This document shows, piece by piece, positions 2,741-60,130 of a DNA stretch of 64,000 bases. The notes beneath the pieces were generated by a model. That model was not told the DNA's origin, ran no database searches, and saw only the letters and a list, made by a program, of their open reading frames with translations. Numbering within the stretch: position 1 is the first letter of the stretch; the number at the start of each line of letters is the position of its first letter. The DNA is from Escherichia phage Bp7, in sequence record NC_019500.1. One strand, 5' to 3'. The position numbers and the translations under genes were made by a program.

Positions 2741-2772
2741 ATGGGACTCTTCGGAGTCCCATTTTTGTTTCT
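2741..2772 (+). terminator. intrinsic terminator hairpin GGGACTC-TTCG-GAGTCCC plus T-run
   Basis: Perfect 7-bp stem, tetraloop, TTTTTGTTT tail. Confidence 0.65.
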
Positions 2773-3630: not shown

Positions 3631-3671
3631 TCTTAAAAATGGAGGCTTCGGCCTCCTTTGAGGAAAATATT

Positions 3672-7454: not shown

Positions 7455-7456
7455 TA

Positions 7457-7476
7457 AAGGCCTTCGGGCCTTTTCT
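7457..7476 (+). terminator. hairpin AAGGCC-TTCG-GGCCTT plus T-run
   Basis: Read directly. Confidence 0.5.
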
Positions 7477-11996: not shown

Positions 11997-12005
11997 ACCC
12001 CTAAA

Positions 12006-12030
12006 GGAGAGCGTACGCTCTCCTTTTTTG
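12006..12030 (+). terminator. hairpin GGAGAGCGTACGCTCTCC plus TTTTTTG
   Basis: Read directly; at the convergence of plus early genes and minus late genes. Confidence 0.6.
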
Positions 12031-23352: not shown

Positions 23353-24201
23353 ATGGCTTATACCGTAGATATGGCTCCTTTGGCGGCTACGGCCGTTATT
23401 GGAGCAACAACCAATTTCACTGCGACCGGTTCCGGTGCTGCAGCTGAAGGTACCGAATCATTTGTCTGGACCGTTGATGGCGTTCCTCAATCTTCTGTGA
23501 CTGCTGCAATGGATTATGTTGCTGTTGGCCCGGCAGGCAGCAAGACTATTAAAGTTGTTGCAACAACTACACCGGCGGACGGCGAACCAGAAACAGCTGA
23601 AGCCGAAACAACTTTAACTATCCAGAATAAAACCATTTCCGGTGTTTCTGTGACATTAACCCCAGCTTCGATTAATGTTCCGGAAGGCACTCCAGCTTCT
23701 TTTAAAGCGGATGTGGTCGGCGCTCCTGCTGGTGCTACTTTTGCCTATTCTTGGAAGAAAGACGGTTCTCCTGTAGTTGGCACCACGGATACTCTAGCAA
23801 TCGATACAAGCACTGAAGGTTCACAGGTTATTGAAGTTTCTGTTGTGGTTTCGGCGACTGATTATAACCCGGCGACTGTCACAAAAACCGGTAATGTAAC
23901 AGTCACGGCTAAAGTCGCACCGGTTCCGGATGGCGAATTACCTTACGTTCATCCACTCCCTGTTCGTAATTCAGCATATATTTGGGTTGGTTGGTGGGTT
24001 ATGGATGAAATCCAGAAAATGACTCTTGAAGGCAAAGACTGGAAAACAGATGACCCGGATAGCCCGTATTATTTGCACCGATATACACTTCAAAAAATGA
24101 TTACCGACTATCCAGAGGTTGATGTACAAGAATCTCGTAATGGTCGAATTATTCATCGCACCGCTTTAGAAGCTGGTATTATATACGATTACGTTTACTA
24201 A
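23353..24201 (+). CDS. hoc: Hoc outer capsid decoration protein (short form)
   Basis: Ig-like Thr/Val-rich repeats plus C-terminal capsid-binding region YVHPLPVRNSAYIWVGWWVMDEIQKM matching remembered T4 Hoc. Confidence 0.85.
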   Translation: MAYTVDMAPLAATAVIGATTNFTATGSGAAAEGTESFVWTVDGVPQSSVTAAMDYVAVGPAGSKTIKVVATTTPADGEPETAEAETTLTIQNKTISGVSVTLTPASINVPEGTPASFKADVVGAPAGATFAYSWKKDGSPVVGTTDTLAIDTSTEGSQVIEVSVVVSATDYNPATVTKTGNVTVTAKVAPVPDGELPYVHPLPVRNSAYIWVGWWVMDEIQKMTLEGKDWKTDDPDSPYYLHRYTLQKMITDYPEVDVQESRNGRIIHRTALEAGIIYDYVY

Positions 24202-24204
24202 TTA

Positions 24205-24224
24205 TGGGCCGCAAGGCCCATTTT
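24205..24224 (+). terminator. hairpin TGGGCCGCAAGGCCCA plus TTTT
   Basis: Read directly. Confidence 0.55.
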
Positions 24225-25637: not shown

Positions 25638-25663
25638 ACGATAAAGGGACCGTAAGGTCCCTT

Positions 25664-26944
25664 TTATTTTTCTAAAGGCGGTAATTTTACGCCGAGATAA
25701 GAACTCAATTGACTTTGATTAGCCATTTTGTCCATATCAGAACCATCAATAATGCGGGCTTCTTTATCGTCCTTAGCGACGGTATAAGGGTTTGCAGTCA
25801 ATGCATAACGAGCAAGCAATGCTACTGTAGGTTGTAAGCTTTCCGGGTCAACAATAACCTTAAATTCACCAACTGAAGTATCACCTTCTTCGTCAACCAC
25901 ATTCAAACCTTCCGTATAAGGCGCATAATATAAAGATGCGACCGTCTGTCCTTCACCCATCTGGGCATTTACACCAACAATAACATAATCACATGGACTA
26001 TTCATATCAGCATAAAGTGGTAGGCCATTCTTTAATATACCATAAGCCAATTCGTCCTGGTCTTCCTTTTTCTCAACCCAACCAGAGGCGGCGAGAATAG
26101 CAGCACAACGAGAACTAGCTACTGCATAAGTCCCGGCAAAAGAAGTCTGTCGTTGGACGGCAGAGTTCATCTCACACATATAATAATATAATGTGCGAGC
26201 ACGGTCCTGGGCATTATCGTAGCGAGGGTTGGTAAGGTCTAATACACCCTTTTCAGAAACACCCTGGACTTTAAAACGAGAGCTCACGGTAATTAATGAC
26301 TGTAATACATCCTTATTAATTTCTTCTGCCATTTGAATGCCTAGCAGATTTTCAACGAAATTAGGAGCATTAAACCCGTTAGATTCTAGGTCTTGGGCTA
26401 ATTCGACTGTCAATGAAGTTTTCAGTTTACGTGATTTAACTTCAGATTGCCATTTGTCGATGCGGAATCCGGTTTCAGCAATTTCAGGATGGCCTTGTTC
26501 AAATTTAGAAGTAATAGCAGCATCCGACACCATACGGATATGGCCGGCTGCCACTGCTTCAGAAATAACTTCGCTGAGGTTGGTTTCTGTGGTTCCGGCG
26601 AAAGGAGATGCTTCTAGAACTTTAAACACTACGCTTTCAAACTGGAACATATCACCGACCGCATAAGCTGTAGATGAATCAGTAAATTCTGGAATATTTT
26701 CACGTTCCGTCATACCAATCTGGCCCGCAAATGTTGCTCCACCAAGATAAGTCATTTTGTCGTCAGGGTTCAGTACACGTACCCCATACAGAGCAGCAAC
26801 CGGTTGATTTGTTTTTTGTTCAGCAACTAGGGCTTTAAAGATTCGTTTATTAGTTGCTTGGGTGTATGAAAGAAGAGCAGGACGGCCAACCGAGCTGGCA
26901 GCCGTCAATGTGGATTCTTTAATTAGGTCTACAATCTTAGACAT
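25664..26944 (-). CDS. gp24-like head vertex protein, divergent paralog
   Basis: 426 aa; shares LQSLITVS, VELAQDLESNGF, LARYALTANPYTVAKDDKEARIIDGSDMDKMA with adjacent gp24 at roughly half identity. Confidence 0.85.
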   Translation of the reverse strand: MSKIVDLIKESTLTAASSVGRPALLSYTQATNKRIFKALVAEQKTNQPVAALYGVRVLNPDDKMTYLGGATFAGQIGMTERENIPEFTDSSTAYAVGDMFQFESVVFKVLEASPFAGTTETNLSEVISEAVAAGHIRMVSDAAITSKFEQGHPEIAETGFRIDKWQSEVKSRKLKTSLTVELAQDLESNGFNAPNFVENLLGIQMAEEINKDVLQSLITVSSRFKVQGVSEKGVLDLTNPRYDNAQDRARTLYYYMCEMNSAVQRQTSFAGTYAVASSRCAAILAASGWVEKKEDQDELAYGILKNGLPLYADMNSPCDYVIVGVNAQMGEGQTVASLYYAPYTEGLNVVDEEGDTSVGEFKVIVDPESLQPTVALLARYALTANPYTVAKDDKEARIIDGSDMDKMANQSQLSSYLGVKLPPLEK

Positions 26945-28608: not shown

Positions 28609-28628
28609 ATGGGAGACCGAAGTCTCCC
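28609..28628. terminator. hairpin GGGAGAC-CGAA-GTCTCCC between convergent gene 23 and the small ORF
   Basis: Read directly; T-richer tail on minus side. Confidence 0.45.
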
Positions 28629-28644
28629 ATAATAAGGTTATATC

Positions 28645-33953: not shown

Positions 33954-34002
33954 TAGAGTCTCCGATGAATGGGATAAGGAGCCGAAGCTCCTTGATAATT
34001 CT

Positions 34003-40367: not shown

Positions 40368-41185
40368 GGGTTTCTCCTTGGTGCTGGAGGCGCCGGCTCG
40401 ACAGGCACTGGAATATCTTGTGAATATGTTTGAACGGAACTTCCATCCCATTCTTTTTCTTCTACACCTCTAGGAACCACTTCGCTATCAACCGATTCGA
40501 AATTACCTTCAGGAGCGAGTTCCTTTGAGTTGGCAAAGAAATCAAGATAAATGGTTTTAATTTCGCCTTCCATTTCCTTCACAGGAGGATATAACCAACC
40601 ATTAACCTCAAACATCATAGACCACTCTAAGCGACGTCTAGAAGTGGTATCACCTTCTAATTGTTCATCCATTGCTATAGATTGGAACACAATACGGATA
40701 TCACGGTCAAATTTAATTTCGTTTGTATAGAGTTCAGTGATAGTTGTATTGAAGTGAGGTTGGAAATAAGGCATAATCTGTTCTACAATTTGGAACATAT
40801 CATCTTGGGTTCTAGTGTAAATACCCAGTTCGAAAATCATTTTAACCGGAGTAGGAGAATATTGGCTGACACGCTTACGTGGGTCGCCATTCTCAAATTG
40901 AATTTGTGTTCTGTTTTGAAGGGCTGTTTTATATTGTGAGTTGTAAAGCATATCAACCATTTGGAGGTTCATACGCGGAAGAACTGTTTCCACTTTAGCT
41001 TTTTGTTCGGCCCGTTCTTTAGCTGTCATATTAGGATTTGGAATATTCTGTACTGCCGTCCATTTACCCAAATTTGCCATAAATCTTTCTTTAGAAGCAT
41101 ACGTAATAGGAACCTTAATAAATTTAAGTCCTGTATCTTCTCTTTGGCGCGCTACTTGGACATGGGAAAATAAATCACCCATCAA
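40364..41185 (-). CDS. 15: tail sheath stabiliser / tail completion protein
   Basis: 273 aa; synteny. Confidence 0.88.
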
Positions 41186-41271
41186 AACAATGTAGCGACG
41201 CAGCGATGAATTGTACCAGTGGCCAAAAATAAATCACCTCTCAAAATGGCGCACCATGCGCCATGTATTAT

Positions 41272-42045
41272 TTAATCATCTAAAAAAGCATCATCAAATG
41301 CTGTAGGAGGAGCATCCTCTCCTCGTCCATTAATTACAACATAAGGATGTACGAATTCCGCCGCTTCAGCATTAATCTCATTGACCTCTTCATATTGAAT
41401 GTCGGAGATATCAGCCAATCCGTCGATATTCTTAACAGGCATTAAATCAAGCTCACTAAACTCAGGGATATTAATACCTTCATTTCTCTGTAATTCAGGG
41501 CGAAGTTCTTCACCATTGTAAATGAACTTGGTAGCGGTGATGCGCCGCTGGACGTTAGCTCCTACTTGATAGAATGGGTCGTAAGGTTGTACCCAGTTAA
41601 TTTCGAATAGGCTGTTGTCCATTGGGAAATAAATCAAATCACCTGAAACAGGTTCAGTGCCATTGCATTGATGTTTAAAAAGGTTAGGGTTAATTGTGAT
41701 TGTTACTTCGTCATTAACCATCATACCGAACTTACTGAAATAAGTATTGTCACCGGAATAACCTTCAAAGGAATCCAAATAACCTGCAAATTTCCAGGCT
41801 TTAGTAAATTTGTTCTGAAGGTCTTCGCCAAATAGCTGGTCTGGATTAACGTATTCACGTGGTATATAATAAAGCTCAATACCACGCATTTGAATAGACT
41901 CAGCAACTAAAGCATCAGCCAATGTTTGGGTATTCTCATGCTTGTAGAAGTTGACGAACGGATTCATTATTTCAGTTTCGTTCGTGTTAGCATAGCCAGT
42001 ATTATTTTCCAGCTTGGCAAATAAACTCGAATCGAAAGTAGCCAT
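41272..42045 (-). CDS. 14: neck protein
   Basis: 257 aa; synteny. Confidence 0.88.
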
Positions 42046-42983: not shown

Positions 42984-43014
42984 GGTTTATTCCTCTAATA
43001 ACCGTATTTATAGC

Positions 43015-43036
43015 AAAAAAGGGCCGAAGCCCTTTT
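43015..43036 (-). terminator. hairpin GGGCTTCGGCCC plus T-run downstream of wac
   Basis: Read on minus strand. Confidence 0.55.
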
Positions 43037-49541: not shown

Positions 49542-49559
49542 AAGGGCCTTGCGGCCCTT
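49542..49559 (-). terminator. hairpin AAGGGCCGCAAGGCCCTT downstream of gene 8
   Basis: Read directly. Confidence 0.45.
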
Positions 49560-49560
49560 A

Positions 49561-50565
49561 TTAGAATTCGAAGATAATGTTAATTTCTTCTGTTTGGTCC
49601 ATGGAACGAATAACCGGAGGACGGTTTTCCATATAAATCATTTCACCTGAATGGCGGGAGAGGTCTATAACATCATAGTACTCTTTTTCGGCTTTAATGA
49701 TCGGATCGGATGGGTGAGCTTTAGCTTCTAATGGATTAGAAATTATCGAAAGCTGTCTAAATCCTTTGTTACCAGGAAGACTAAATTCAGGGAAGTAAAC
49801 TGAATCTAAGAATGCTTTAAAACGAATGGTATTGCCTTTAATACGATAAATCAATCCATAATCGTCTTGCTGCCAAGTAAGATTATTCTCGTATCCCCAA
49901 CGTTCAGGGTCTTCGGCAATTTCTTCTGGCCATGGTACTACAATATATTCATTAGTGCAACGGTTAATACTTACATCAGGTGGAATCTCATACAAATATT
50001 CCCAGAGATACCCATCACCCGTATCAACCATACCTTCCGTATCACCTTGACCTGCTGGAGCTTTAACCGACTGTACATTTGAGGTCCATTTACCACCAAG
50101 TTTAATACACTCAGTTTTATTATCAAGGGACAAAATAGAACATGTACCTGATTCTGGGATATCTACACAACGATAAACCATCCACCCGGCACCGACATCA
50201 GTACGGTTTTGCGGCTGGCTGTTCGCCACTACAATTTCACCAATCTGGAAAGTAAACGGATTAGGATAAGAGGTATCGCCCCAGTCTTTGCGCGGGACAA
50301 CACAATCCAACATGCTCTTATAAACCTTAACGCATCCCATCATGTTTGTCCAGACGTCTTCTACGCCTTCAGAATCATCTACAGGATATGGCGGGGCAAA
50401 ACCTGGGTCGTTTTCGTTATCTGCCCATGGTCGGGCCCTTCCGAAAGATACATACATGGTGTTCTGGTCTTCACCATCACCTATTGTTCTGTAAAAGTTG
50501 TACATTTTTTCCGTTCTAAATTTTGAAGTAACAATAGAACGATAAACTACTGTAGAATTAATCAT
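49561..50565 (-). CDS. 8: baseplate wedge protein
   Basis: 334 aa, same length as T4 gp8. Confidence 0.9.
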   Translation of the reverse strand: MINSTVVYRSIVTSKFRTEKMYNFYRTIGDGEDQNTMYVSFGRARPWADNENDPGFAPPYPVDDSEGVEDVWTNMMGCVKVYKSMLDCVVPRKDWGDTSYPNPFTFQIGEIVVANSQPQNRTDVGAGWMVYRCVDIPESGTCSILSLDNKTECIKLGGKWTSNVQSVKAPAGQGDTEGMVDTGDGYLWEYLYEIPPDVSINRCTNEYIVVPWPEEIAEDPERWGYENNLTWQQDDYGLIYRIKGNTIRFKAFLDSVYFPEFSLPGNKGFRQLSIISNPLEAKAHPSDPIIKAEKEYYDVIDLSRHSGEMIYMENRPPVIRSMDQTEEINIIFEF

Positions 50566-53500
50566 TAATTTTTACCTGAGTTGGAACTTTAGGGTCTCTA
50601 GGATTTCCAATATCGTCTTTAAGACGCTTATCAACCAGTGCACGCCAATTGGCAAAGGTCGCAGCACTTTGGTCAAACAATGGACTATGCTTTTTAATAC
50701 GTTCGTGTGGTAATTGACCTTGGAATACAGAGAAATCATTTTCCGCATCATAATCTGCAGGGATATCAAACGGTTCTCCTGCTTTAGGTCCAACGTTATA
50801 AACCGGAAGTCCTGTTCTAGGGTCTCGTTCTATATTACCATCAAAACCTATTACAGCAACTCTATCATACCATTCAGATGGCAAACCTGAGTCCCATTTG
50901 TAGTTCTTAAGGATATTAATAATAGTTTCTGTATGTTTTAGCGTTAAACCTACGTTAACGAACATAGAAAGCAAAGTTATACCTACAAAGCCGAAACCTA
51001 CTGGATGAACAAATCTCAAAACATCGTTGCGATAACGAGAAGTAGGGAGATTAGACTTAATGGTCATCACATAATAAGAACGGTTACGGTTGATATAGTC
51101 GATATTGTTACTCAAAAGCTCTTTACCACGTACGCCCTGAACAATCATACCCTTGAACGAAGTACGTTCAGATTTAATTTCCTGTCCGACTATAAAACGA
51201 CCTAAAAGATTATGAATGGTTAAACGCCATTGCAGTTTACCATCTTTGTAATTTCGTTCTATATAAGTAACATTACTACGACCTGTAGGAGTATAAATCG
51301 TTTGGCCTACGATATCTTCACTGATATTATCAGATTCTACGATGATATCATATTCGATAGAGTTCTTGGACTCGATATCAATTTCTACATCTTCATTGTA
51401 AAGCAATTTAAACAGGAATTTATATGAAGCTTCGGTACCTTTTGTAGACCAAAAATCGGTTTGGCGCGCCTGGAAAAAACGAACTACTTCGTCGCGTTTT
51501 TCTTTCGACAAATAGATATTACGCTTATAGATTTCCGACCACAAATATTCCCATGAATCTTCTTCACGTGGGTATTGGTTACGAATAAGATTCAACAAAT
51601 TATTATAGTGTGTACCTGAGCCATCACTAATAAATTGGAGATAGTATTCACAGAATTTTTCAAAGTTGCTATCTTGAAGCAAATAACTATCTGGAATCAT
51701 TTTAACCAGTAAAGGCTGGAGGTCCGGGTCTTGCTCACCAACTTCCTCTTTAGGTTTCCACGGGATTTCATGTTCTTGGTTTTGCAATTCAGCCGTAAAC
51801 ATAATTTCTTTAGGCTTCCAAATAACACGGACTTCATCGCGTACACGATAGTCGAATTCAAAATATCCAACCAATTCACCTGTAGATTTGTGAATCATCA
51901 TTCCAGAAGAATATTTCTTAAAGCCGTTGAACTCTATATTAGGAGATGTGACTTTACAAAAACCTTTATTCCAAATCTCATGAACAATACGTTCAGGTGA
52001 AGAACCACTGTTCAGGTCGATAATTTTCTGGTATAAAGCATCGTTATAAACAACCATCGCATGGTCACCAGTGGTAATCCATGAACGGGTTCCATCGCGT
52101 CGAGACCAACTAAAGAATGGTTCGGCATAATAAGCCATACGCCCAGGTTTAAATTCTTTGAAATCGGATTTAGAGTTAGACCTAAAACTCATCATCAAAT
52201 AATGTTTATCGTGAATCCATTGTTCATCTTTAACATATTTAACGGCGGAGGTGACAATTTCAGGGTATTCCAAAGGAAGCTCAGAATCAACCTCTACTTC
52301 ATATCTAAAGTTGCTTGAACTGAAAAATAATTCCTCTCCATCAGTAGACATGCTGGTATATCCATGCTCTATACGACGACGTTCTTCTTCAGTGTTTCCA
52401 AATACACGGGTCCATGTATCAGTTGAAGTGTCTAACCAATAAACACCTTTGGATTCAGAATCAACCACATTGGATTCGACCGTAGGGTCCATTTTTTCTT
52501 CTTTAACTTCACCTGTAATTAAAGCAAATGTATGGCCTTGGATAGAATCTAATTTATAACAAACTGCTTTAGGGTTCCCTGTGATAGTTGAATATCCGCT
52601 TTCAAATATCTTCTCTCCATAAGTCGGAGAACTAGGGTCGGTGTCTATAGGTGCCTCAGATGTTTTTGCTTTATAAACTCTGTCTCTACCTGCAACATAA
52701 ATGAAATCATCAGAAGCGCATATAGCTTCAGCAATAGTGGAAATAGGCAAAGGAAGTTTTGCATATGACCCAAATATCTCGATTTCAAATGGAAGGTCGA
52801 TATCACTACCTATTTTAGCAAATGTTATATCTTGGGAGCTAAAACGGACATCATCAGCAGACCAACGAATATCACTTGATTTACGTCCGTAAAATATTTG
52901 GTCATAACCTAGAACATACGTAGTAGTTTCAGTTTGGTAATGTGCCGTACGTGAAACAGGGTTACCTACTCGGTCATTAAACAAACGGATATAATGCCAG
53001 TTCTGCCCTTTATCATTAGAAACCTTAGCAGTACTTTGGAACCTTTCTAAAAGGTAAAGTACACCACCAAGTTCCATTAAAATAGAACGTTTAGGGTCTT
53101 TACAAACCGCTTGGATGCTTCCTTGGATTTCATGGAATCGGTCTGCTTTTAAAACATAATTTGATATAGATGACAAATGCGAATACGCTGGCGTAAAGTT
53201 AAAATCTTCCGTCATTAAGGAAGCCATAATGGCATCGGTATTAAAGTTCACATAATTCTGATTATTTTTTGTGAATTTTTCTTCAATAAATTTATTAGAC
53301 AAAGTGAATTCACGCATATGCTCAAATGTATATGCGTTGGTAGAGAAAGTTTCAAATTCTTCAGTGTAAACCCATTCAGACTGCTCAAACCCCTGGGCGG
53401 CCACCGCAACTCGCATTTTATAAAATGAATTAGGAGAAATGAATGCCTCTTCAAACCATTCGTTATTAGGGGTGTAACCTAAATTTCTCCAAAATAATCT

Positions 53501-53653
53501 ATCGTCGGGAATTTCTACACCCGCATCCTTCGTTTGGGCCAGTTCTACGAAATAATAGAAGTTGGCGCCTACGTCATCCCAAAGAATGCTCACATGGTTA
53601 GCCGAGAGTTTATCAATTCTCAGACTAGTAACATAAGGCGCTTGTACAGACAT
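50558..53653 (-). CDS. 7: baseplate wedge initiator
   Basis: 1031 aa vs T4 gp7 1032 aa. Confidence 0.93.
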   Translation of the reverse strand: MSVQAPYVTSLRIDKLSANHVSILWDDVGANFYYFVELAQTKDAGVEIPDDRLFWRNLGYTPNNEWFEEAFISPNSFYKMRVAVAAQGFEQSEWVYTEEFETFSTNAYTFEHMREFTLSNKFIEEKFTKNNQNYVNFNTDAIMASLMTEDFNFTPAYSHLSSISNYVLKADRFHEIQGSIQAVCKDPKRSILMELGGVLYLLERFQSTAKVSNDKGQNWHYIRLFNDRVGNPVSRTAHYQTETTTYVLGYDQIFYGRKSSDIRWSADDVRFSSQDITFAKIGSDIDLPFEIEIFGSYAKLPLPISTIAEAICASDDFIYVAGRDRVYKAKTSEAPIDTDPSSPTYGEKIFESGYSTITGNPKAVCYKLDSIQGHTFALITGEVKEEKMDPTVESNVVDSESKGVYWLDTSTDTWTRVFGNTEEERRRIEHGYTSMSTDGEELFFSSSNFRYEVEVDSELPLEYPEIVTSAVKYVKDEQWIHDKHYLMMSFRSNSKSDFKEFKPGRMAYYAEPFFSWSRRDGTRSWITTGDHAMVVYNDALYQKIIDLNSGSSPERIVHEIWNKGFCKVTSPNIEFNGFKKYSSGMMIHKSTGELVGYFEFDYRVRDEVRVIWKPKEIMFTAELQNQEHEIPWKPKEEVGEQDPDLQPLLVKMIPDSYLLQDSNFEKFCEYYLQFISDGSGTHYNNLLNLIRNQYPREEDSWEYLWSEIYKRNIYLSKEKRDEVVRFFQARQTDFWSTKGTEASYKFLFKLLYNEDVEIDIESKNSIEYDIIVESDNISEDIVGQTIYTPTGRSNVTYIERNYKDGKLQWRLTIHNLLGRFIVGQEIKSERTSFKGMIVQGVRGKELLSNNIDYINRNRSYYVMTIKSNLPTSRYRNDVLRFVHPVGFGFVGITLLSMFVNVGLTLKHTETIINILKNYKWDSGLPSEWYDRVAVIGFDGNIERDPRTGLPVYNVGPKAGEPFDIPADYDAENDFSVFQGQLPHERIKKHSPLFDQSAATFANWRALVDKRLKDDIGNPRDPKVPTQVKIND

Positions 53654-53680
53654 TAAATCTCCTTAAACCTCCGAAGAGGT

Positions 53681-55639
53681 TTATATTGTAATTGGTTCCA
53701 ACTCTATAGTTGTGTACTGAGGACGAAGGTCATCTTCAAATACGATTAAAGAACCGTCTTTGGTAAAGATGTTGTCTTGGTCTGGCCCTGCATAAAGTTC
53801 AATAGACTGGACTTCAAAACGGTCGGAAGTAAGGCCTATTGCGGCGATATCCCAGAAAATAAAGTCCGAGTAATAATCAATTTCGCCAATAACATAGTAG
53901 ACCGATTGGTCTGCAGGCGCTGCCATTTTATCGAAGTCATCTCCGGTGTAAGGTTGGATGTATTGGTTTTCAATTACATCGCCAGGTCGGAAAGGACCTA
54001 TAACCATTTTACCATCGCCTCGTTCGTCTTTATCTGTGGCAACAATACGTACGTTGTAAGATTTAACAACATCAGATACGTTTGTTGGGACGAACTCAAA
54101 TTCACTAGAAGTTACAGAACGGTTGGTGTATTGATTATAGTATTTAATACCCGCTTCAGGTGTTTTGAAGAAGTTTAATACCTCGCGAACCATTGTTACC
54201 GTAGCCGAAGAGCCAAGGATACTGTGGTCTGCATTATCAATATAAGTCAGCATTTTAGACTTGGCAAATCCGTGGTTGAATATTTCAACTTCGTTAATAT
54301 AATAACGGTCTATTTGGGAAAGGATTTGAGCCGTTAACCATTGTTCGGATTCCTGTAATTTGTTCAGTGCATATGAAACCTTAATTTTATGCTTCAAGAA
54401 CAAGTAGTCAGGAGAAATAACCGAAGGGGTAATAGGTGCCAAGTTAAATTCTGAAAGATAATTTTGGATATCTTCGCGTTGAACCGCAGTCAAATACAAT
54501 CCTGATTTAGGTTTAATGGTAACAAAGGCATAACCTGGTTTATTTGGGTCTGTAAAGGTTTGTACTGCTTGTACAATAGAACCAAATCGCTCCGAAACGA
54601 ATGTATCATAATCTGTACCGGTTACAGCACGCATCTGGGCTTCACGTTTAACTACAGCAAGTTCACGAATACGTTCAATATCTTCAGGGTCACCACCACC
54701 GTCAGCACCTACATAATCCGGGTTTTCATCGTAGTTTTCTGTAATTTTTTCAACCGTAATATATGCCAAAGAATCCGCATAACTAAAGTCCACTGCCCCG
54801 TTAGCAACTTCACCATCTGTACGAAGGTATTCTATAACAATGGTAGCATCTTTAACAGGTTTTAAACCACCAATATAATTAGCTTCTAATACCCCACCTG
54901 CAACTGATTTTTCAGCAACACCTTCACCAAAGAAGAATTCAGTATTACCATCTACGGTTTCACGCATATAGTAAATTGTTGATGTACTACCAGCATGAAC
55001 CATGGATTTATTAGTCCAGTTAGTCCATTCTGCGCCATCGACATAAAGTTTAACTTCCTGTCTATCAATATCCGGGTCACGAATAAGAATAGGAGTTTTA
55101 GGGTCATACTTAAGTTCAGTACGGATAATACGACCTTGTGCTAAAGATACGATAGGAAGATATTGGTTATTAACATCACGTACGGCAATAACGTTTTCCG
55201 TGGTAACAAAAGCATACGGGTCTGCTGAAGTATCACGGGCATAGGCCAAGAATTTAGTACCACGTGGGATACGAATATTCTTTTCATTCAGGGCTTGGGT
55301 ACAGGTCAACATGATACTTGTTTTGGCTGCTGATTTAGAACTTGGCAAATAGCCGTTATCCTGTGCAGCCTGGACGACGGAGGAACGCAAGTTAGCAGTA
55401 CCGATGAAAGATTCATATACCGCGGTATTAGCAAACTGCTGCATATACAGGGTGTTGTAAGCTAACATGTCAATCAGGATATTCATTCGCGAACCAACGA
55501 AATCGTAATCCTTAAATTCGTCCTGGCTAGAAAGCCAATCGATAATATTCTTTTTAATCTCTTCAAACGTAGCTCCCACAAATACTTTTGGGATAGCGTT
55601 AACGGTTCTTGTTAATTGGTAATTCGTAGGAGTAGCCAT
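53681..55639 (-). CDS. 6: baseplate wedge protein
   Basis: 652 aa; N-terminus as T4 gp6. Confidence 0.93.
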   Translation of the reverse strand: MATPTNYQLTRTVNAIPKVFVGATFEEIKKNIIDWLSSQDEFKDYDFVGSRMNILIDMLAYNTLYMQQFANTAVYESFIGTANLRSSVVQAAQDNGYLPSSKSAAKTSIMLTCTQALNEKNIRIPRGTKFLAYARDTSADPYAFVTTENVIAVRDVNNQYLPIVSLAQGRIIRTELKYDPKTPILIRDPDIDRQEVKLYVDGAEWTNWTNKSMVHAGSTSTIYYMRETVDGNTEFFFGEGVAEKSVAGGVLEANYIGGLKPVKDATIVIEYLRTDGEVANGAVDFSYADSLAYITVEKITENYDENPDYVGADGGGDPEDIERIRELAVVKREAQMRAVTGTDYDTFVSERFGSIVQAVQTFTDPNKPGYAFVTIKPKSGLYLTAVQREDIQNYLSEFNLAPITPSVISPDYLFLKHKIKVSYALNKLQESEQWLTAQILSQIDRYYINEVEIFNHGFAKSKMLTYIDNADHSILGSSATVTMVREVLNFFKTPEAGIKYYNQYTNRSVTSSEFEFVPTNVSDVVKSYNVRIVATDKDERGDGKMVIGPFRPGDVIENQYIQPYTGDDFDKMAAPADQSVYYVIGEIDYYSDFIFWDIAAIGLTSDRFEVQSIELYAGPDQDNIFTKDGSLIVFEDDLRPQYTTIELEPITI

Positions 55640-55640
55640 T

Positions 55641-57704
55641 TTAATTCCTAGTAGGAGATTCTAAACAAGGTATGCAAATGGAAAGGGATGGAAATGCAAT
55701 CGTTAAACCGAATATTCCCAGCATCTTATTAATCCATTGTACCACCTTACTTAAGGATAATGTTGATATTTGGTTATACATTGATTTGCACAAGTCTTTC
55801 ATTGACCTGGAACCATCAGTAAATTCGTGATATAAAGATTTTGCTTTAGTTACTGAGTTCTCGTATATAACCATGATATCATCTACAGTAGCTCCGAGCA
55901 TACCGAGAAGTTCTTCCATTTGAGCCACAATAGGAAGTTTTTTGAATTCTTCTAAAGCCATATCTAATACATCAGAAACGGAGGTTTGACTTTCGGTAAT
56001 AGAGTTCTTAATCTGATTATATTTATTCTTTAAAAGTTCGAGTGCAGCTTCAGCTTGTGCTAATGCGGCTTCCTTCTGAGCAGTTAGCTCGTCTGTAACT
56101 TTTTCGTACATTCCTGAAAGATATTGTTTAAATTCAATAGCTTGTTTTTGTACTTCTTGCTTTTTGAGCTTAATCTCATTCCACAGATTGAGTGCCTGGG
56201 TTTTAAGAGCCTCAATCATTGCATAAGCTTCGTCTATTTTCTGGTCTACCTTTTCCATAACCATTTGATAAACATCTGATGCTGTGAATCCTGGAAAGTT
56301 ACCGCTCATTATCATGTCCAGTGGTTTAACTTGCTTCATCATTTCCTTGACCGCAGTAATAACGCTCCAAACTGGGTTCGGAACTATAGGAGGCATACTC
56401 CATATTTGAGCGAGGTCTACACACAGTTTTGATAATGCAACACCAGCCATAAGCAATTGAGACCAGGCCCAGTCATACAAGTCTGTAATTGCATCAATAA
56501 GGTCACGCGAATACATCTTGACGCGTTCAACCGAATAATCGTATGCAGACCCAATGGCAGAATAAATCGATTGGATGGTTTCTTCTAAATTAAAGTTTTT
56601 CCATGCTTCTTTTAATTTCTGTACACCATCACCTGAAGTGCAGAGGTCTTCTAGGTCAATAGTCATGCCCATAATAGTAATCGAGGGTAAAAAGCTTTTA
56701 AGTAAGTCCCACCCACCGCCAACAATATTCAAGACCTGTGATATGGCATCTTTAAATGCAAGAAAAGCCATTTGCTGAACATATTGACACATAGCAACAG
56801 CCGAGTTGCCTAGCTCTTCCATTGCGACCGATAGCTTACTATAACCAGAATCGAAGAATTTTTCCCAATCGGTTCCACCAGATGATGGCCATCCAGGGAG
56901 CATATCCCAATATAATTTGAATGAATTCCTAGATGTATTCCATGAAGCCATAATCGCATTGGTCAATCCGTTGTAAGGGAATTCCGCTGTAAAAGGAACA
57001 CAGCTTATTGCCCTGGCTCGCCCGGTTATTTCTGGCGGTAAAGACCCGATGGATACCGGTCCCGGAATCGGAGTTCCTGGGATACTCATATCAACATCTA
57101 GATTTAATACCAGTCCAACATAAGTACAAGGTTTTGTCTCATAGTACTTCAAATAAGCCCTGCGGGAGTCACCAAGGCCGTTAAAGTTGACATACATATG
57201 ATAATCAGCCGTAACTGCAATCATCGTCCTGGGGTCCATTCTGGGGCCTTGTGATGTCCATACACCGCCACAGTTTTCGATGCGATACATATCATATTCA
57301 ATAGATGTTTTATACAATACAGATTTTGATAAATCAGCGCCGTACCAATCATTACCGGGCAAAAGAGTTGCACCAATCGATTCTACATAATTTTCTAAAT
57401 CCAATTGCGTAATAAAGAATATTCCGAGTTTAGCACACCAGATACCTTGACTTGTTCCATCTTCCGGTGGGGGAGGTGCAGGAAAAGTTTCGGACTTATT
57501 ACCAAATGGATTTTGTGTGTATAAATGTGTAGCTAGTGGAATAATCTCGGTATCCCATTCAACGCCATTCCCAGGTTGAATAAAAGCACCTGTTGGGTTA
57601 TATAATTCCCATTTAACCCGGCGATATTCACCGGGTCCTACTGCGTCATCACAGGGACTTGTTACAGTCCCTACCACTTCATCAACTTTATCGTAGTAAT
57701 TCAT
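55641..57704 (-). CDS. large uncharacterised protein (687 aa) between genes 5 and 6
   Basis: Continuous ORF, ATG one nt after gp5 TAA and stop one nt before gp6 ATG; Pro-rich N-terminal region, helical/coiled-coil middle; no recognised family. Confidence 0.7.
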   Translation of the reverse strand: MNYYDKVDEVVGTVTSPCDDAVGPGEYRRVKWELYNPTGAFIQPGNGVEWDTEIIPLATHLYTQNPFGNKSETFPAPPPPEDGTSQGIWCAKLGIFFITQLDLENYVESIGATLLPGNDWYGADLSKSVLYKTSIEYDMYRIENCGGVWTSQGPRMDPRTMIAVTADYHMYVNFNGLGDSRRAYLKYYETKPCTYVGLVLNLDVDMSIPGTPIPGPVSIGSLPPEITGRARAISCVPFTAEFPYNGLTNAIMASWNTSRNSFKLYWDMLPGWPSSGGTDWEKFFDSGYSKLSVAMEELGNSAVAMCQYVQQMAFLAFKDAISQVLNIVGGGWDLLKSFLPSITIMGMTIDLEDLCTSGDGVQKLKEAWKNFNLEETIQSIYSAIGSAYDYSVERVKMYSRDLIDAITDLYDWAWSQLLMAGVALSKLCVDLAQIWSMPPIVPNPVWSVITAVKEMMKQVKPLDMIMSGNFPGFTASDVYQMVMEKVDQKIDEAYAMIEALKTQALNLWNEIKLKKQEVQKQAIEFKQYLSGMYEKVTDELTAQKEAALAQAEAALELLKNKYNQIKNSITESQTSVSDVLDMALEEFKKLPIVAQMEELLGMLGATVDDIMVIYENSVTKAKSLYHEFTDGSRSMKDLCKSMYNQISTLSLSKVVQWINKMLGIFGLTIAFPSLSICIPCLESPTRN

Positions 57705-57705
57705 A

Positions 57706-59493
57706 TTAACCGACCTGTACGTTGCCACCAGATACTTTAGCTAATGAACCGCCATCCATATGCACAGTATTTGATGCGTTTAAATTAATGTTCGTCGCTG
57801 CAAAATTTAAATCTTGTTCGACATTTACATCCATATTTTGAGCATTGATTGTGGCCTTTTGTTTAACGCTTATATCTGCATTCTGGTTGACATTAACTGT
57901 TGTATCTTTTTCAACCGTAATATATGCTTCTTGTTCAACAGTTATATCAGCAGTACCCATAATAACTATTTTAACATTTCCTTTAACAAGCAGAGTCCCA
58001 TCACCTTCTACGGTTTTAGTTTCATTACCACGAATATGGATGCTTTCAGACCCGTCAGTTTGACGACGCACGTTTGCCATATTATAATAGGTTTCATCGC
58101 CACCAACGTTGACTTTATTATTACCACCAACATAAGTATTTGAATCGCCTTGGGTCATATAATAACCATCGGCTACCGTCTTAGAAGTTTTACGTCCATC
58201 AGGAGCAACTTCTTCATAACTACCGGTAGGATGGATTAATCGATAACGCTCTTGCCCTGGGGTGTTATCAAATTCTTGGATATGCCCACCTTCAGTTTGC
58301 ATTGTCTGCACATAAGGATATTCGCCCTTATAACTTGATTCGGGTTCTTTAAAAAGAATCCTTGTATCTTCTGGGGTCCACGGGTCGGCCGGGTCTGAAT
58401 TTGCAGGTGCGGCAAAGGTTTGAATCATTCTATACGAACGCCCTTTAAATGACCTTTCTTTAGGAGCCATAATACCATATGATTCCATATTGCCTGTAAG
58501 GATAACCATTGACACCCTTGAAGCACGCCCTTTAGTTTGGTTAAACCATACAGAGTCGCGAGCATTGTCAAAGGCCGCTTTATAATCACCCGCTAACATA
58601 TCAGTAAGCATGCCCTGGAATTTAGCCAGTCCACCTACACCCATTTGGAAAGCCATATTTTCGAGGGCCATCTGTCTAGAACGGTTTTCTTTGTTGTATA
58701 CTTGCGTTAAAAGGGCATTAGTCTTTACAATATCCTTTTGGACTTTTTTAAGGTCTTCTTGAAATAATTTAGAAGCTTCCTCTATGGATATAGAGCCTGG
58801 ATTACCTTTAACTTCGCGCCCTATTTGTCTGGATAAAGCTTTATTAGCCCCAGTCATATCGCCTTTAGCAAATTCACCAATAAAGTGACCAATGCCGACA
58901 GTATATCCTCTAACGTCCCAATATACTTTAAGACTCAGGCCTTCATCACGTTGAATCATTTTCTCTATTGTAAAATTAGGGTCATTATCGGGTTTAATTT
59001 GGCTAAGGTCCTTTCCGTCTGGATTAAGGCCCAAATCTAGGTTAGAATCCTGGATTACGTTAGAAGTGGCATCATATCCAACTTCACCACCTCGGTTTAG
59101 TGCAGCGGCATCGTTACCTAAATAAAGTGGATATTGGCCTGTTGGGTCGCTAAAACCTTCATTAGGGTTTGCTTTTTGTTTTGAAGCAGAACCGTATGTA
59201 CCTAGGACAAGTCCGTTTAATTTCCACTTATCAAGAAAGTGGCCATAAACTTGTGTACCTGGGACCATACCTGTCATAGCGGTTTGTATACCTGAAACAG
59301 AGGCCGAAGATGTAGGCATTAATACCGACATCCATGGTAAATCTTCTGTACGAAGACCTTTTACAGGGCCTTGTACCTTTTCATAGGGATGCATACCCCA
59401 TACGCGCACGCGTACTCGGCCTTGTTTGAGCGGGTCCATTCGGTCTTCAACTACACCGACGAACCAACTTACATTATCAGACATGTTAATCAT
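57706..59493 (-). CDS. 5: baseplate central spike with tail lysozyme domain
   Basis: 595 aa; WFVGVVEDRMDPLKQGRVRVRVWG, lysozyme segment RDEGLSLKVYWD..GY.TVGIGH, C-terminal beta-helix repeats. Confidence 0.95.
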   Translation of the reverse strand: MINMSDNVSWFVGVVEDRMDPLKQGRVRVRVWGMHPYEKVQGPVKGLRTEDLPWMSVLMPTSSASVSGIQTAMTGMVPGTQVYGHFLDKWKLNGLVLGTYGSASKQKANPNEGFSDPTGQYPLYLGNDAAALNRGGEVGYDATSNVIQDSNLDLGLNPDGKDLSQIKPDNDPNFTIEKMIQRDEGLSLKVYWDVRGYTVGIGHFIGEFAKGDMTGANKALSRQIGREVKGNPGSISIEEASKLFQEDLKKVQKDIVKTNALLTQVYNKENRSRQMALENMAFQMGVGGLAKFQGMLTDMLAGDYKAAFDNARDSVWFNQTKGRASRVSMVILTGNMESYGIMAPKERSFKGRSYRMIQTFAAPANSDPADPWTPEDTRILFKEPESSYKGEYPYVQTMQTEGGHIQEFDNTPGQERYRLIHPTGSYEEVAPDGRKTSKTVADGYYMTQGDSNTYVGGNNKVNVGGDETYYNMANVRRQTDGSESIHIRGNETKTVEGDGTLLVKGNVKIVIMGTADITVEQEAYITVEKDTTVNVNQNADISVKQKATINAQNMDVNVEQDLNFAATNINLNASNTVHMDGGSLAKVSGGNVQVG

Positions 59494-60107: not shown

Positions 60108-60130
60108 TATAAATAATATTAATATTTATA
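60108..60130. promoter_or_regulatory. back-to-back late promoters (TATAAATA each strand) for 53 and 4
   Basis: gagTATAAATAatattaatatttataagg. Confidence 0.5.

Follow-up and report, generated by a model that had tools for sequence, protein, structure and literature searches.

The analysed window, a stretch of 64,000 nt, comes from a JS98-like T-even phage (Dhakavirus). On its minus strand, a 652-aa ORF (53681-55639) and a 1031-aa ORF (50558-53653) were assigned to gp6 and gp7, respectively, on the strength of 97-99.9% identity with their annotated counterparts in JS98 and MX01, in agreement with the assignment made earlier from the DNA letters (the sequence-only reading). Across the junction, the minus-strand sense reads 5'-ACAATA TAA ACCTC TTCG GAGGT TTAAGGAGATTTA ATG. 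A stem-loop had previously been placed here, overlapping the gp6 stop region and just ahead of the gp7 AAGGAG. Inspection of the sequence and RNAfold predictions located this structure on the minus (coding) strand, with the first A of AAGGAG as its last paired base (Table 1). The 5-bp stem given in the sequence-only reading is the core of a longer helix, as the arms TAAACCTC and GAGGTTTA are complementary over 8 bp (DNA letters 53683-53664, minus strand: TAAACCTC-TTCG-GAGGTTTA). In the core, 53680-53676 are paired with 53671-53667 around the loop at 53675-53672. Given that the complementarity runs to 8 bp, the whole gp6 TAA sits in the 5' arm.

Table 1. Features of the gp6/gp7 junction and the evidence for each.
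Feature	Position	Strand	Evidence
Full hairpin TAAACCUC-UUCG-GAGGUUUA, 8-bp stem and 4-nt loop	53664..53683	-	Sequence; RNAfold MFE and centroid; in the perfect-tetraloop list
Conserved core ACCUC-UUCG-GAGGU	53667..53680	-	Junction sequences, IMG/VR loci, pair counts
UUCG tetraloop, closing pair C53676-G53671, C(UUCG)G motif	53672..53675	-	CTTCGG match at 53671-53676(-)
gp6 stop codon TAA, wholly within the 5' arm of the stem	53681..53683	-	ORF 53681-55639(-); JS98 and MX01 annotation
gp7 Shine-Dalgarno (SD) AAGGAG, 5 nt upstream of ATG; first A alone paired	53659..53664	-	Sequence; predicted structures
gp7 start codon ATG	53651..53653	-	ORF 50558-53653(-); annotation in relatives
gp6/gp7 spacer, 27 nt	53654..53680	-	Sequence and junction comparison
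gp6 codons Leu-Glu-Pro (TTG GAA CCA)	53693..53701	-	Junction sequences aligned by eye

The hairpin is both the MFE and the centroid structure predicted by RNAfold, at -12 kcal/mol when folded within 61 nt and at -9.7 kcal/mol within the 35 nt that extend from just before the stop codon to the ATG. The folding energy alone is unremarkable (z = -1.3), and 24 of 200 shuffled sequences fold equally well. Hence, the non-randomness of the site rests on the class to which the hairpin belongs and on its conservation, not on folding energy. The hairpin 14-mer is present as a single copy in the window even when three mismatches are allowed, and a repeated or mobile element was rejected on this ground. 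When Rfam was searched with the hairpin, no family reached its gathering score, the best matches (E>=0.65) falling far under the thresholds.

Tetraloop hairpins of this type are over-represented in the window. The motif CTTCGG occurs 38 times (20.2+-4.3 expected), and 14 perfect tetraloop hairpins were observed as compared with 5.8+-2.0 in shuffles. Ten of these 14 lie no more than 45 nt after a stop codon, a zone that makes up 5.2% of the window (p=1.2e-10), and the sense-strand loops of these post-stop hairpins are UUCG, GCAA or GUAA. All stable loops of the class in the window are on the mRNA strand, and this holds for the UUCG of every C(UUCG)G hairpin whose stem has at least 6 bp (7/7). 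Several members precede U-runs and TATAAATA late promoters, as at 43017-43036 after wac, and the class therefore marks transcript boundaries.

C(UUCG)G intercistronic hairpins have been described for T4 (Tuerk et al. 1988, PNAS 85:1364, as summarised in PMC8948821). The gp6/gp7 structure has the UUCG loop and C-G closing pair of that class, with seven more pairs beyond the closing pair, as required by the definition (X)2-8CUUCGG(Y)2-8 in PMC8948821, and it lies at an intergenic site of a T4-type phage (gp6/gp7, Dhakavirus) where the mRNA strand carries the motif. Exceptional thermal stability and reverse-transcriptase stops are further hallmarks of the class; the gp6/gp7 hairpin has a predicted free energy of -9.7 kcal/mol. 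It shares with the T4 hairpins the motif (X)n-CUUCGG-(Y)n, the intergenic location, the sense-strand polarity and the over-representation in the genome. However, T4 itself lacks this particular site, its genes 6 and 7 sharing an ATGA overlap. The hairpin is an ordinary member of the long-known class of very stable C(UUCG)G hairpins of T4-type phage operons, a class that the sequence-only reading had not recognised. We know of no function ascribed to this instance.

Every Dhakavirus and Gaprivervirus genome examined retains the hairpin at the gp6/gp7 junction. Covariation is seen at the outermost pair of the core (53680/53667), which is A-U in the window, G.U in JS98 and G-C in IME08 and Gaprivervirus as well as in P896, VR7 and RZ; within the clearly homologous clade, it is limited to this one base pair. 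The loop is UCCG in VR7 and UUAG in the IME08 group. The 14-nt core is conserved, whereas the adjacent 13 nt of the spacer diverge with indels, and flanking identity is ~76%. The stem variants all adopt the same fold, with energies between -9.6 and -12.2 kcal/mol.

At the same junction, unrelated stems are found in PspYZU05 (Jiangsuvirus; AGAGGC-UUCG-GCCUCU) and in Aeromonas phages (GGGCC-UAAC-GGCCC and AGGGCC-UUCG-GGCCCU), and these hairpins may have independent origins. As counted in loop-centred 20-mers of seven haplotypes, with the PspYZU05 and Aeromonas rows aligned by structure, 91% of cells are paired, a value reached in 0 of 500 shuffles. Whatever the lineage, 0-4 nt separate the stop codon from the beginning of the stem and 0-4 nt separate its end from the SD, and at least three U directly follow the GC core in every short-spacer variant, extended to U5 after the stem in RZ, P479 and UPEC07. 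Taken together, the covariation and the sense-strand tetraloops show a structure under selection at the RNA level.

Three architectures of the gene 6/7 boundary were distinguished. In most other genera sampled, T4 included, the two genes share an ATGA stop/start overlap. Dhakavirus and Gaprivervirus have the short hairpin spacer, and analogous short spacers occur in Jiangsuvirus and the Aeromonas phages. In Pseudotevenvirus, Slopekvirus and metagenomic relatives, a full terminator (a hairpin and a run of 6-10 U) is followed by a late-promoter-like box, and the boundary is therefore a site of transcript punctuation in part of the family. These long junctions share with the window their position, a GC hairpin with a tetraloop (UUCG in both CPRSB and L058/L059), U residues after it and a similar UUGGAGA SD context. 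They differ in having 9-10-bp stems, 6-10 U and ~50 extra nt with a TATAAATA-like box, as compared with the promoterless junction of the window, with its U3 and 5-8-bp stem.

A synonymous signature inside gene 6 accompanies the switch between overlap and spacer. In the genera with the ATGA overlap, the gene 7 SD (tGGAGcc) lies inside gene 6 at the Leu-Glu-Pro codons and is invariant, with Glu encoded by GAG, whereas GAA is found at this site in every spacer-bearing lineage, so that the internal SD is lost. Initiation of gene 7 has thus clearly been rebuilt in the spacer lineages. The spacer replaces the ATGA overlap in the Dhakavirus/Gaprivervirus lineage, giving gene 7 a strong SD of its own that is predicted to be unpaired. 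In Klebsiella phage KpV477, a homing endonuclease gene lies exactly between gp6 and gp7 with no hairpin at either of its boundaries, and the hairpin was accordingly rejected as the scar of such an insertion.

The statement in the sequence-only reading that no T-run follows the stem holds for the DNA tail AGGAGAUUUAAUG, and the sense strand was not flagged in a terminator scan. The RNA tail AGGAGAUU includes a short U3, as compared with the at least five U in eight residues expected of an intrinsic terminator. The sense strand was likewise unflagged when the U5 variant of RZ was scanned. The nearest consensus late promoters on the minus strand are at 60123-60130 and 43005-43012; no TATAAATA occurs on that strand between 60123 and 43012, and the 27-nt spacer is too short for a promoter. 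Gene 7 therefore depends on read-through, and the hairpin does not lie at the end of a transcription unit, being followed by an essential gene without a promoter of its own. A cryptic late promoter over the stop codon (TATAAACC) was rejected on account of two mismatches to TATAAATA and a lack of conservation, the relatives having TATAAGCC. An antisense-strand terminator was also rejected: the plus-strand copy was flagged by the scan, but the plus strand carries no genes at this place, and fewer sites were flagged in total than expected from shuffles.

In the predicted structures, the GGAG and AUG of gp7 are unpaired, with no sequestration of either in a helix, and the hairpin as modelled does not mask the gp7 RBS. 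The partition-function cost of opening the region from the SD to AUG+12 was computed in three contexts. Deletion of the core in silico gave costs of 4.2-7.7 kcal/mol, equal to or lower than those with the hairpin (5.1-8.5 kcal/mol), and the hairpin is therefore unnecessary for the predicted accessibility of the RBS. Scrambling of the core raised the cost in short contexts, where the scrambled CCUC pairs with GGAG. On these modelled costs, a role as an RBS insulator, or in keeping the RBS open, is not supported. A masked second SD (GGAGGU in the 3' arm, freed when a terminating ribosome melts the stem) was rejected because PspYZU05 has its SD-like sequence in the 5' arm, and no such arm occurs in the Aeromonas stems. 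Stimulation of read-through or frameshifting to give a gp6-gp7 fusion was rejected on account of a second in-frame TAA in the spacer and the lack of a slippery heptamer. In the window both genes share one reading frame, a relation that is not conserved, given the 28- to 31-nt spacers of relatives.

The sequence-only reading had proposed a role in mRNA processing or stability, or in translational coupling, rather than in termination. The exclusion of a canonical terminator stands, there being no U-tract and no promoter for gene 7, whereas the variant of a translational role in which the hairpin keeps the RBS open is unsupported. Processing/stability and translational coupling form a broad pair of possibilities that sequence data do not separate, and the comparative results are compatible with either.

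The preferred explanation, to which we assign a probability of about 0.4, is that the hairpin acts as a 3'-end decay barrier or weak attenuator favouring gene 6 over gene 7 mRNA. It would serve as internal punctuation on the long late gp53-to-wac transcript, folding right after the gene 6 stop codon. T4 mRNAs are degraded by PNPase, RNase II and RNase R (PMC3014915), and once the downstream RNA is cut, such 3'->5' exonucleases (PNPase, RNase II/R) would be blocked by the hairpin; slight termination via the short U3 tail is also possible. The mRNA containing gene 6 would then outlast or outnumber that of gene 7, which would be supplied by read-through RNA polymerases and translated by independent initiation at AAGGAG. 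The direction of this effect would match the 2:1 need of the wedge heterotrimer, for which a (gp6)2-(gp7)1 stoichiometry is stated in PMC6300606, and we infer a link to that stoichiometry.

Precedents exist in the malE-malF intergenic region (PMC5927463) and in the selective RNA processing and stabilisation (SRPS) of the cip-cel operon (PMC4423207), where subunit ratios are set by 3' hairpins that lack U-runs and stabilise the cistron ahead of them. Like these, the gp6/gp7 structure is an intergenic hairpin without a U-run in a polycistronic unit encoding unequal subunits with an expressed downstream gene, and it is predicted to form a stable intercistronic stem-loop free of terminator features. 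However, it is much smaller and weaker: with three G-C pairs and a predicted -10 kcal/mol, the stem makes a weak barrier next to the documented protective structures of -14 to -24 kcal/mol (PMC4423207). Moreover, T4 and most other genera reach the 2:1 ratio with the ATGA overlap and without the hairpin, which is therefore not required for the stoichiometry. A further objection to the decay barrier is that the sole function named for a T4 CUUCGG hairpin in the summary given by PMC8948821 is 5'-end stabilisation of gene 32 mRNA, and stabilisation of that type would favour the downstream gene, opposite to the preferred explanation.

Among the rival explanations, a translational device is possible, though unlikely. 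The hairpin would either insulate the cistrons for independent translation of gene 7 or govern how ribosomes pass from gene 6 to gene 7, in which case a terminating ribosome would melt the stem at the UAA and refolding would put the stop codon beside the SD, bridging the 27-nt gap, so that termination-reinitiation coupling would be kept despite loss of the ATGA overlap. The position of the spacer in place of that overlap, the loss of the internal SD (GAA) in all spacer lineages and the tight placement of the stem between stop codon and SD are consistent with such a device. In T4, structures in initiation regions are inhibitory in e, soc, 49 and I-TevI, and enhancing as a 'split SD-AUG' in genes 25 and 38, where hairpins join separated initiation elements (PMC3014915). 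The gp6/gp7 structure resembles these as a cis-acting mRNA hairpin beside a late-gene RBS of a T-even phage. However, it leaves the SD and AUG free, unlike the inhibitory structures, and it is located 5' of the SD, not between SD and AUG as in genes 25 and 38. The strong, unpaired SD already has the ideal 5-nt spacing, so that independent initiation needs no help, and deletion of the core does not raise the predicted RBS-opening cost. Tight positioning may simply reflect scant room in the spacer, and hairpins of the same class are also found without a downstream RBS.

It is likewise doubtful that the hairpin is a vestige or near-neutral passenger of little present function. The spacer would then be a small insertion or a trimmed form of the terminator-plus-late-promoter junction of the Pseudotevenvirus and Slopekvirus type, persisting since GC-rich tetraloop hairpins decay slowly and are harmless. 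The similar SD context, UUGGAGA(U/A)U, in short and long spacer forms suggests homology, most genera manage without the hairpin, its folding energy is ordinary, and the UNCG loop has been lost in the IME08 group. Against a vestige, the compensatory A-U/G.U/G-C series maintains pairing, the core is conserved beside its diverging neighbour, and in no fewer than three lineages a hairpin, each time with another stem, has been kept or has arisen anew.

Rather improbable is a role as a 5' stabiliser of gene 7 mRNA, in which an upstream endonuclease cut would leave the hairpin at the 5' end and shield the transcript from 5'-end-dependent RNase E, as for papBA or T4 gene 32. Such models are described for papBA (PMC5927463) and for the 5' CUUCGG hairpin that stabilises T4 gene 32 mRNA (PMC8948821), and the distance of 0-3 nt between the gp6/gp7 hairpin and the SD is typical for 5' stabilisers. 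However, the effect would raise gp7 relative to gp6, the reverse of what the 2:1 ratio demands (PMC6300606), the last gp6 codons include no match to the RNase E site RN|WUU, the sole match (GA|UUU) being downstream of the hairpin, and related hairpins of the class stand at gene 3' ends and are followed by U-runs.

An efficient intrinsic terminator closing the gene 53-to-gene 6 transcript is most improbable, since a stop-proximal GC hairpin with U3 (U5 in RZ, P479 and UPEC07) and true terminators at the same site in long-spacer relatives are set against unflagged sense strands in both the window and RZ and the lack of a late promoter ahead of gene 7. There is equally little to expect of a DNA-level element (cruciform, recombination site, protein-binding palindrome or mobile-gene scar), even though the junction tolerates insertions, as in KpV477, and T4-type phages can recombine through PeSL stem-loops (PMC2839356): the stable class tetraloops all face the mRNA strand, the G.U pair of JS98 functions in RNA only, the sequence is unique in the window, and the KpV477 junctions are hairpin-free. 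Like the PeSL cassettes of RB49 and phi1, the gp6/gp7 hairpin is a small intergenic stem-loop of a T4-type genome followed by an SD and start codon. However, it is unrepeated, has no GGGG...CCCC stem, and is located in the conserved late virion module, not in a hyperplastic region; nor was any promoter-like site, such as the sigma-70-like early promoter of PeSL, detected on the minus strand at the spacer.

Alone, the hairpin is of little weight, being one more instance of a class known since 1988, and searches for T4-type phage data from Term-seq or 3'-end mapping returned none. The added value is comparative, as one boundary is built in three ways (ATGA overlap, short hairpin-plus-SD spacer, terminator with late promoter). 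The junction could serve as a compact natural experiment on how the subunits of a 2:1 complex are balanced, and could help to test the action of UUCG hairpins without a U-tract in late T-even transcripts. A broader and still tentative proposal, one that we consider less than probable, is that a spacer with hairpin and SD serves as an adaptive substitute for ATGA termination-reinitiation coupling, and that it arose or was retained independently in several lineages of Straboviridae (Dhaka/Gapriver, Jiangsu and Tulane-type Aeromonas phages). Stems would turn over while a stop-abutting UNCG-type hairpin stays, and the 2:1 ratio of gp6 to gp7 would be set via mRNA stabilisation or attenuation, not translation. 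If this is true, the gp6/gp7 junction would be a natural three-state system for how phages tune the stoichiometry of their structural proteins.

In the mRNA sense, the gp6/gp7 junction reads ...ACA ATA TAA ACCTC TTCG GAGGT TTAAGGAGATTTA ATG, and the 5-bp stem and TTCG loop were found exactly where the sequence-only reading had placed them. Complementarity of the stem reaches 8 bp (TAAACCTC/GAGGTTTA), which puts the whole gp6 stop codon inside the 5' arm. The last stem base is the first A of the gp7 Shine-Dalgarno (SD) sequence AAGGAG, located 5 nt upstream of the ATG. The hairpin is both the MFE and the centroid structure predicted by RNAfold, with GGAG and AUG left unpaired, and its loop plus closing pair is C(UUCG)G.

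Several readings of this structure were rejected: an inhibitory structure in the TIR, as the SD and AUG are free in the predicted fold; a bridging hairpin of the gene 25/38 type, as SD and AUG already stand 5 nt apart; a PeSL, as a sigma-70 promoter is absent and the hairpin is not a repeat; and a need for RBS accessibility, as deletion of the core in silico left the opening cost equal or lower. An Rfam search with the hairpin matched no family. All testable defining features of the C(UUCG)G intercistronic hairpins of T4 (Tuerk et al. 1988, via PMC8948821) are present, but T4 itself has no gp6/gp7 hairpin, and no description of this one was found in the literature.

Folding energy alone is unexceptional (z = -1.3, dinucleotide shuffles, 61-nt context), and it is class behaviour and conservation that set the hairpin apart from chance. 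The window has 38 copies of CTTCGG, where 20.2±4.3 are expected. A stem of at least 6 bp is seen in seven C(UUCG)G hairpins, and in 7/7 the UUCG shares its strand with the flanking genes; the other six have 6-9-bp stems, and all (6/6) are in mRNA sense and at gene ends. When all loops are counted, there are 14 perfect tetraloop hairpins (six or more Watson-Crick pairs, three or more of them G-C), against 5.8±2.0 in shuffles, and 10 of the 14 sit at stop codons (binomial p=1.2e-10), the zone from 3 nt before to 45 nt after a stop making up 5.2% of the window sequence. The mRNA-sense loops of these stop-codon hairpins are UUCG, GCAA or GUAA, which are RNA-specific extra-stable tetraloops, and their position on the mRNA strand speaks for a role at the RNA level, not the DNA level. 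Class members occur in two contexts, namely a hairpin followed by a late promoter (after wac and after gp8), and a hairpin with U2-3, an SD and a start codon after it (gp6/gp7, after gp14, and 3641-3656). The C(UUCG)G hairpins after gp23 and after wac look terminator-like, and the GUAA and GUAC palindromic hairpins between convergent genes look like bidirectional terminators.

Coordinates of the gp6/gp7 junction, related hairpins and other features of the window
Feature	Coordinates	Strand	Remarks
gp6 ORF	53681-55639	-	652 aa; so annotated in JS98 and MX01
gp7 ORF	50558-53653	-	1031 aa; so annotated in JS98 and MX01
gp6/gp7 hairpin	53683-53664	-	8-bp stem
C(UUCG)G hairpin	2741-2762	+	gene end, mRNA sense
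C(UUCG)G hairpin	3641-3656	+	stop-hairpin-UUU-SD-ATG, as at gp6/gp7
C(UUCG)G hairpin	7456-7473	+	gene end, mRNA sense
C(UUCG)G hairpin	28609-28630	-	gene end, mRNA sense
C(UUCG)G hairpin	33976-33993	-	gene end, mRNA sense
Hairpin after wac	43017-43036	-	directly followed by late promoter
Late promoter after wac	43005-43012	-	TATAAATA
Late promoter before gp53	60123-60130	-	
Hairpin after gp8	49542-49559	-	GCAA loop (GNRA), gene end; late-promoter context
GNRA-loop hairpin	24204-24221	+	GCAA; follows gene ending at 24201
GNRA-loop gene-end hairpins	25643-25664, 12003-12026		GUAA and GUAC palindromic hairpins, between convergent genes
Hairpin upstream of gp15	41246-41264	-	
Opening codon of the gp15 frame	41228-41230	-	ATT
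Replacement gp5-gp6 module	~55651-57933	-	2.28 kb
ORF in the module	55641-57728		695 aa, mechanical

The gp15 (tail sheath stabiliser) frame opens directly after a TGA stop, and its first codon is ATT here and ATG in the 90%-identical Dhakavirus UGJNEcP3 (ATG TTT GGA CAT TGG...), with an SD, GAGAGG, 6 nt upstream of the ATT. This is either a non-canonical start, a start 16 residues later at ATG 41182, or a sequencing error; the conserved N-terminus encoded in that frame matches the N-terminus of T4 gp15.

The window belongs to a JS98-like T-even phage (Straboviridae, Tevenvirinae, Dhakavirus), and over the 1.4 kb around the hairpin its identity is 99.9% to Escherichia phage MX01 and 97% to JS98. 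Relative to these two phages, an unrelated module takes the place of the stretch from the gp5 C-terminus to the 5.1/5.4 region, a swap of the central-spike module directly upstream of gp6. The sole Pfam match of the module's ORF is a weak one to DUF6565. The module is at least 99% identical in WG01, LHE83, E33 and SP18, and some 200 records of Klebsiella, Cronobacter and Enterobacter phages carry more distant copies. The best GenBank match changes from MX01 at the gp6/gp7 junction (53000-54400) to WG01/LHE83 at the module and Salmonella phage vB_SalD_ABTNLS3 (100%; next group 90-95%) at gp14/15 (41100-41300), which indicates a mosaic Dhakavirus genome.

Junctions from GenBank phages spanning the identity range, and from IMG/VR contigs chosen solely by similarity to the gp7 N-terminus and blind to the hairpin, fall into three states. 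State A is an ATGA overlap without spacer, found in T4 (Tequatrovirus), Mosigvirus, Winklervirus, Kanagawavirus, Jiaodavirus, Krischvirus, Mosugukvirus, Roskildevirus, one Acinetobacter phage and every IMG/VR locus outside Dhakavirus/Gaprivervirus; in all members the gp6 Leu-Glu-Pro codons are tGGAGcc, with GGAG 11 nt upstream of the gene 7 ATG. State B is a 26-31 nt spacer in which the stop codon and a GC tetraloop hairpin are followed by U2-5 and the SD. The Glu codon is GAA in every state-B lineage, and hence the internal GGAG is lost and SD function is shifted into the spacer. In Dhakavirus the hairpin is ACCUC-UUCG-GAGGU (window, MX01, QL01), GCCUC-UUCG-GAGGU (JS98, VR5) or GCCUC-UUAG-GAGGC (IME08, C6, AnYang); in Gaprivervirus it is GCCUC-UUCG-GAGGC (P896; also RZ, P479 and UPEC07, then U5) or GCCUC-UCCG-GAGGC (VR7). 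Pseudomonas phage PspYZU05 (Jiangsuvirus) has AGAGGC-UUCG-GCCUCU, and Aeromonas phages have GGGCC-UAAC-GGCCC or, at 78% gp7 identity, AGGGCC-UUCG-GGCCCU. State C comprises a 9-10-bp hairpin, with loop UUCG (Slopekvirus CPRSB, metagenomic L058/L059) or AUCC (Pseudotevenvirus leB), then 6-10 U in a row, a TATAAATA-like box and an SD (stop-to-ATG spacer ~78 nt in leB), and so amounts to a terminator with a late promoter behind it. In states B and C the SD has a similar context, UUGGAGA(U/A)U, and the two may therefore be homologous.

In Klebsiella phage KpV477 (366-1067 of the locus), a homing endonuclease gene lies exactly between gp6 and gp7 and overlaps both neighbours (TAATG upstream, ATGA downstream), marking the junction as a tolerated insertion point. 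In a 99%-identical Dhakavirus contig (IMGVR_UViG_2974741249_000001, 155 kb), the gp6 3' end (...GAGTTGGAA) is fused out of frame to about codon 45 of gp7 (locus positions ~330-420), with ~170 nt gone including the stop codon, hairpin and gene 7 start; the cause is either a defective genome or faulty assembly. UAAC, the junction hairpin loop in Aeromonas phage 60AhydR15PP and relatives (L048/L054-L056), is also the tetranucleotide reported to be critical in the loop of the T4/RB69 gp43 translational operator (PMC3014915), probably a coincidence.

In the homologous Dhaka/Gapriver clade, the outermost core pair is A-U in the window, G.U in JS98 and G-C in the others, a standard compensatory path. 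Loop variants UUAG and UCCG apart, the rest of the 14-nt core is constant, the spacer's other 13 nt have diverged and carry indels, and the flanking genes are 76-84% identical. All variants give the same predicted hairpin (-9.6 to -12.2 kcal/mol). When seven haplotypes are aligned on the loop, 91% of cells are paired and both sides change in 5/8 pairs, with the PspYZU05 and Aeromonas rows, which may be independent inventions, placed by structure; only one pair covaries within the homologous clade. The observed pairing values were matched in 0/500 shuffles, and sliding the 3' partner by one column lowers pairing to 54-67%.

The gp6/gp7 hairpin is an RNA-strand-specific, positionally constrained and selected member of the T4 CUUCGG class. 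It is placed in a long late operon, abuts the gene 6 stop and precedes a free, strong gene 7 RBS, and the function favoured for it is internal transcript punctuation (probability about 0.4). After a downstream cut, the hairpin would block 3'->5' exonucleases, by which T4 mRNAs are degraded (PMC3014915), and its U3 tail might give slight attenuation; either would leave more gene 6 mRNA than gene 7 mRNA. This direction is supported by its fit to the (gp6)2-(gp7)1 wedge heterotrimer (PMC6300606), by documented precedents in which intergenic hairpins without a U-run set subunit ratios (PMC5927463, PMC4423207), and by the true terminator-plus-promoter at the same boundary in other Straboviridae. 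Against punctuation, the stem is weak beside documented protective hairpins, and the same stoichiometry is achieved without a hairpin in most genera.

A role in translational hand-over or insulation is unlikely, and similarly low odds are given to a near-neutral vestige. A 5' stabiliser for gene 7, by analogy with gene 32 (PMC8948821), would be improbable. The hairpin is not a canonical terminator, and efficient termination is barely credible: as the sequence-only reading had noted, no U-tract follows the stem; the terminator scan leaves the sense strand unflagged, including with the U5 of RZ; and essential gene 7 lacks its own promoter, with consensus late promoters on this strand limited, in the region, to those before gp53 and after wac. 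An element acting in DNA, given the loops on the mRNA strand, is just as implausible.

To a specialist the hairpin is unsurprising and no long-standing question hinges on it; the three-state junction and the GAG/GAA synonymous signature add something neat, though minor.
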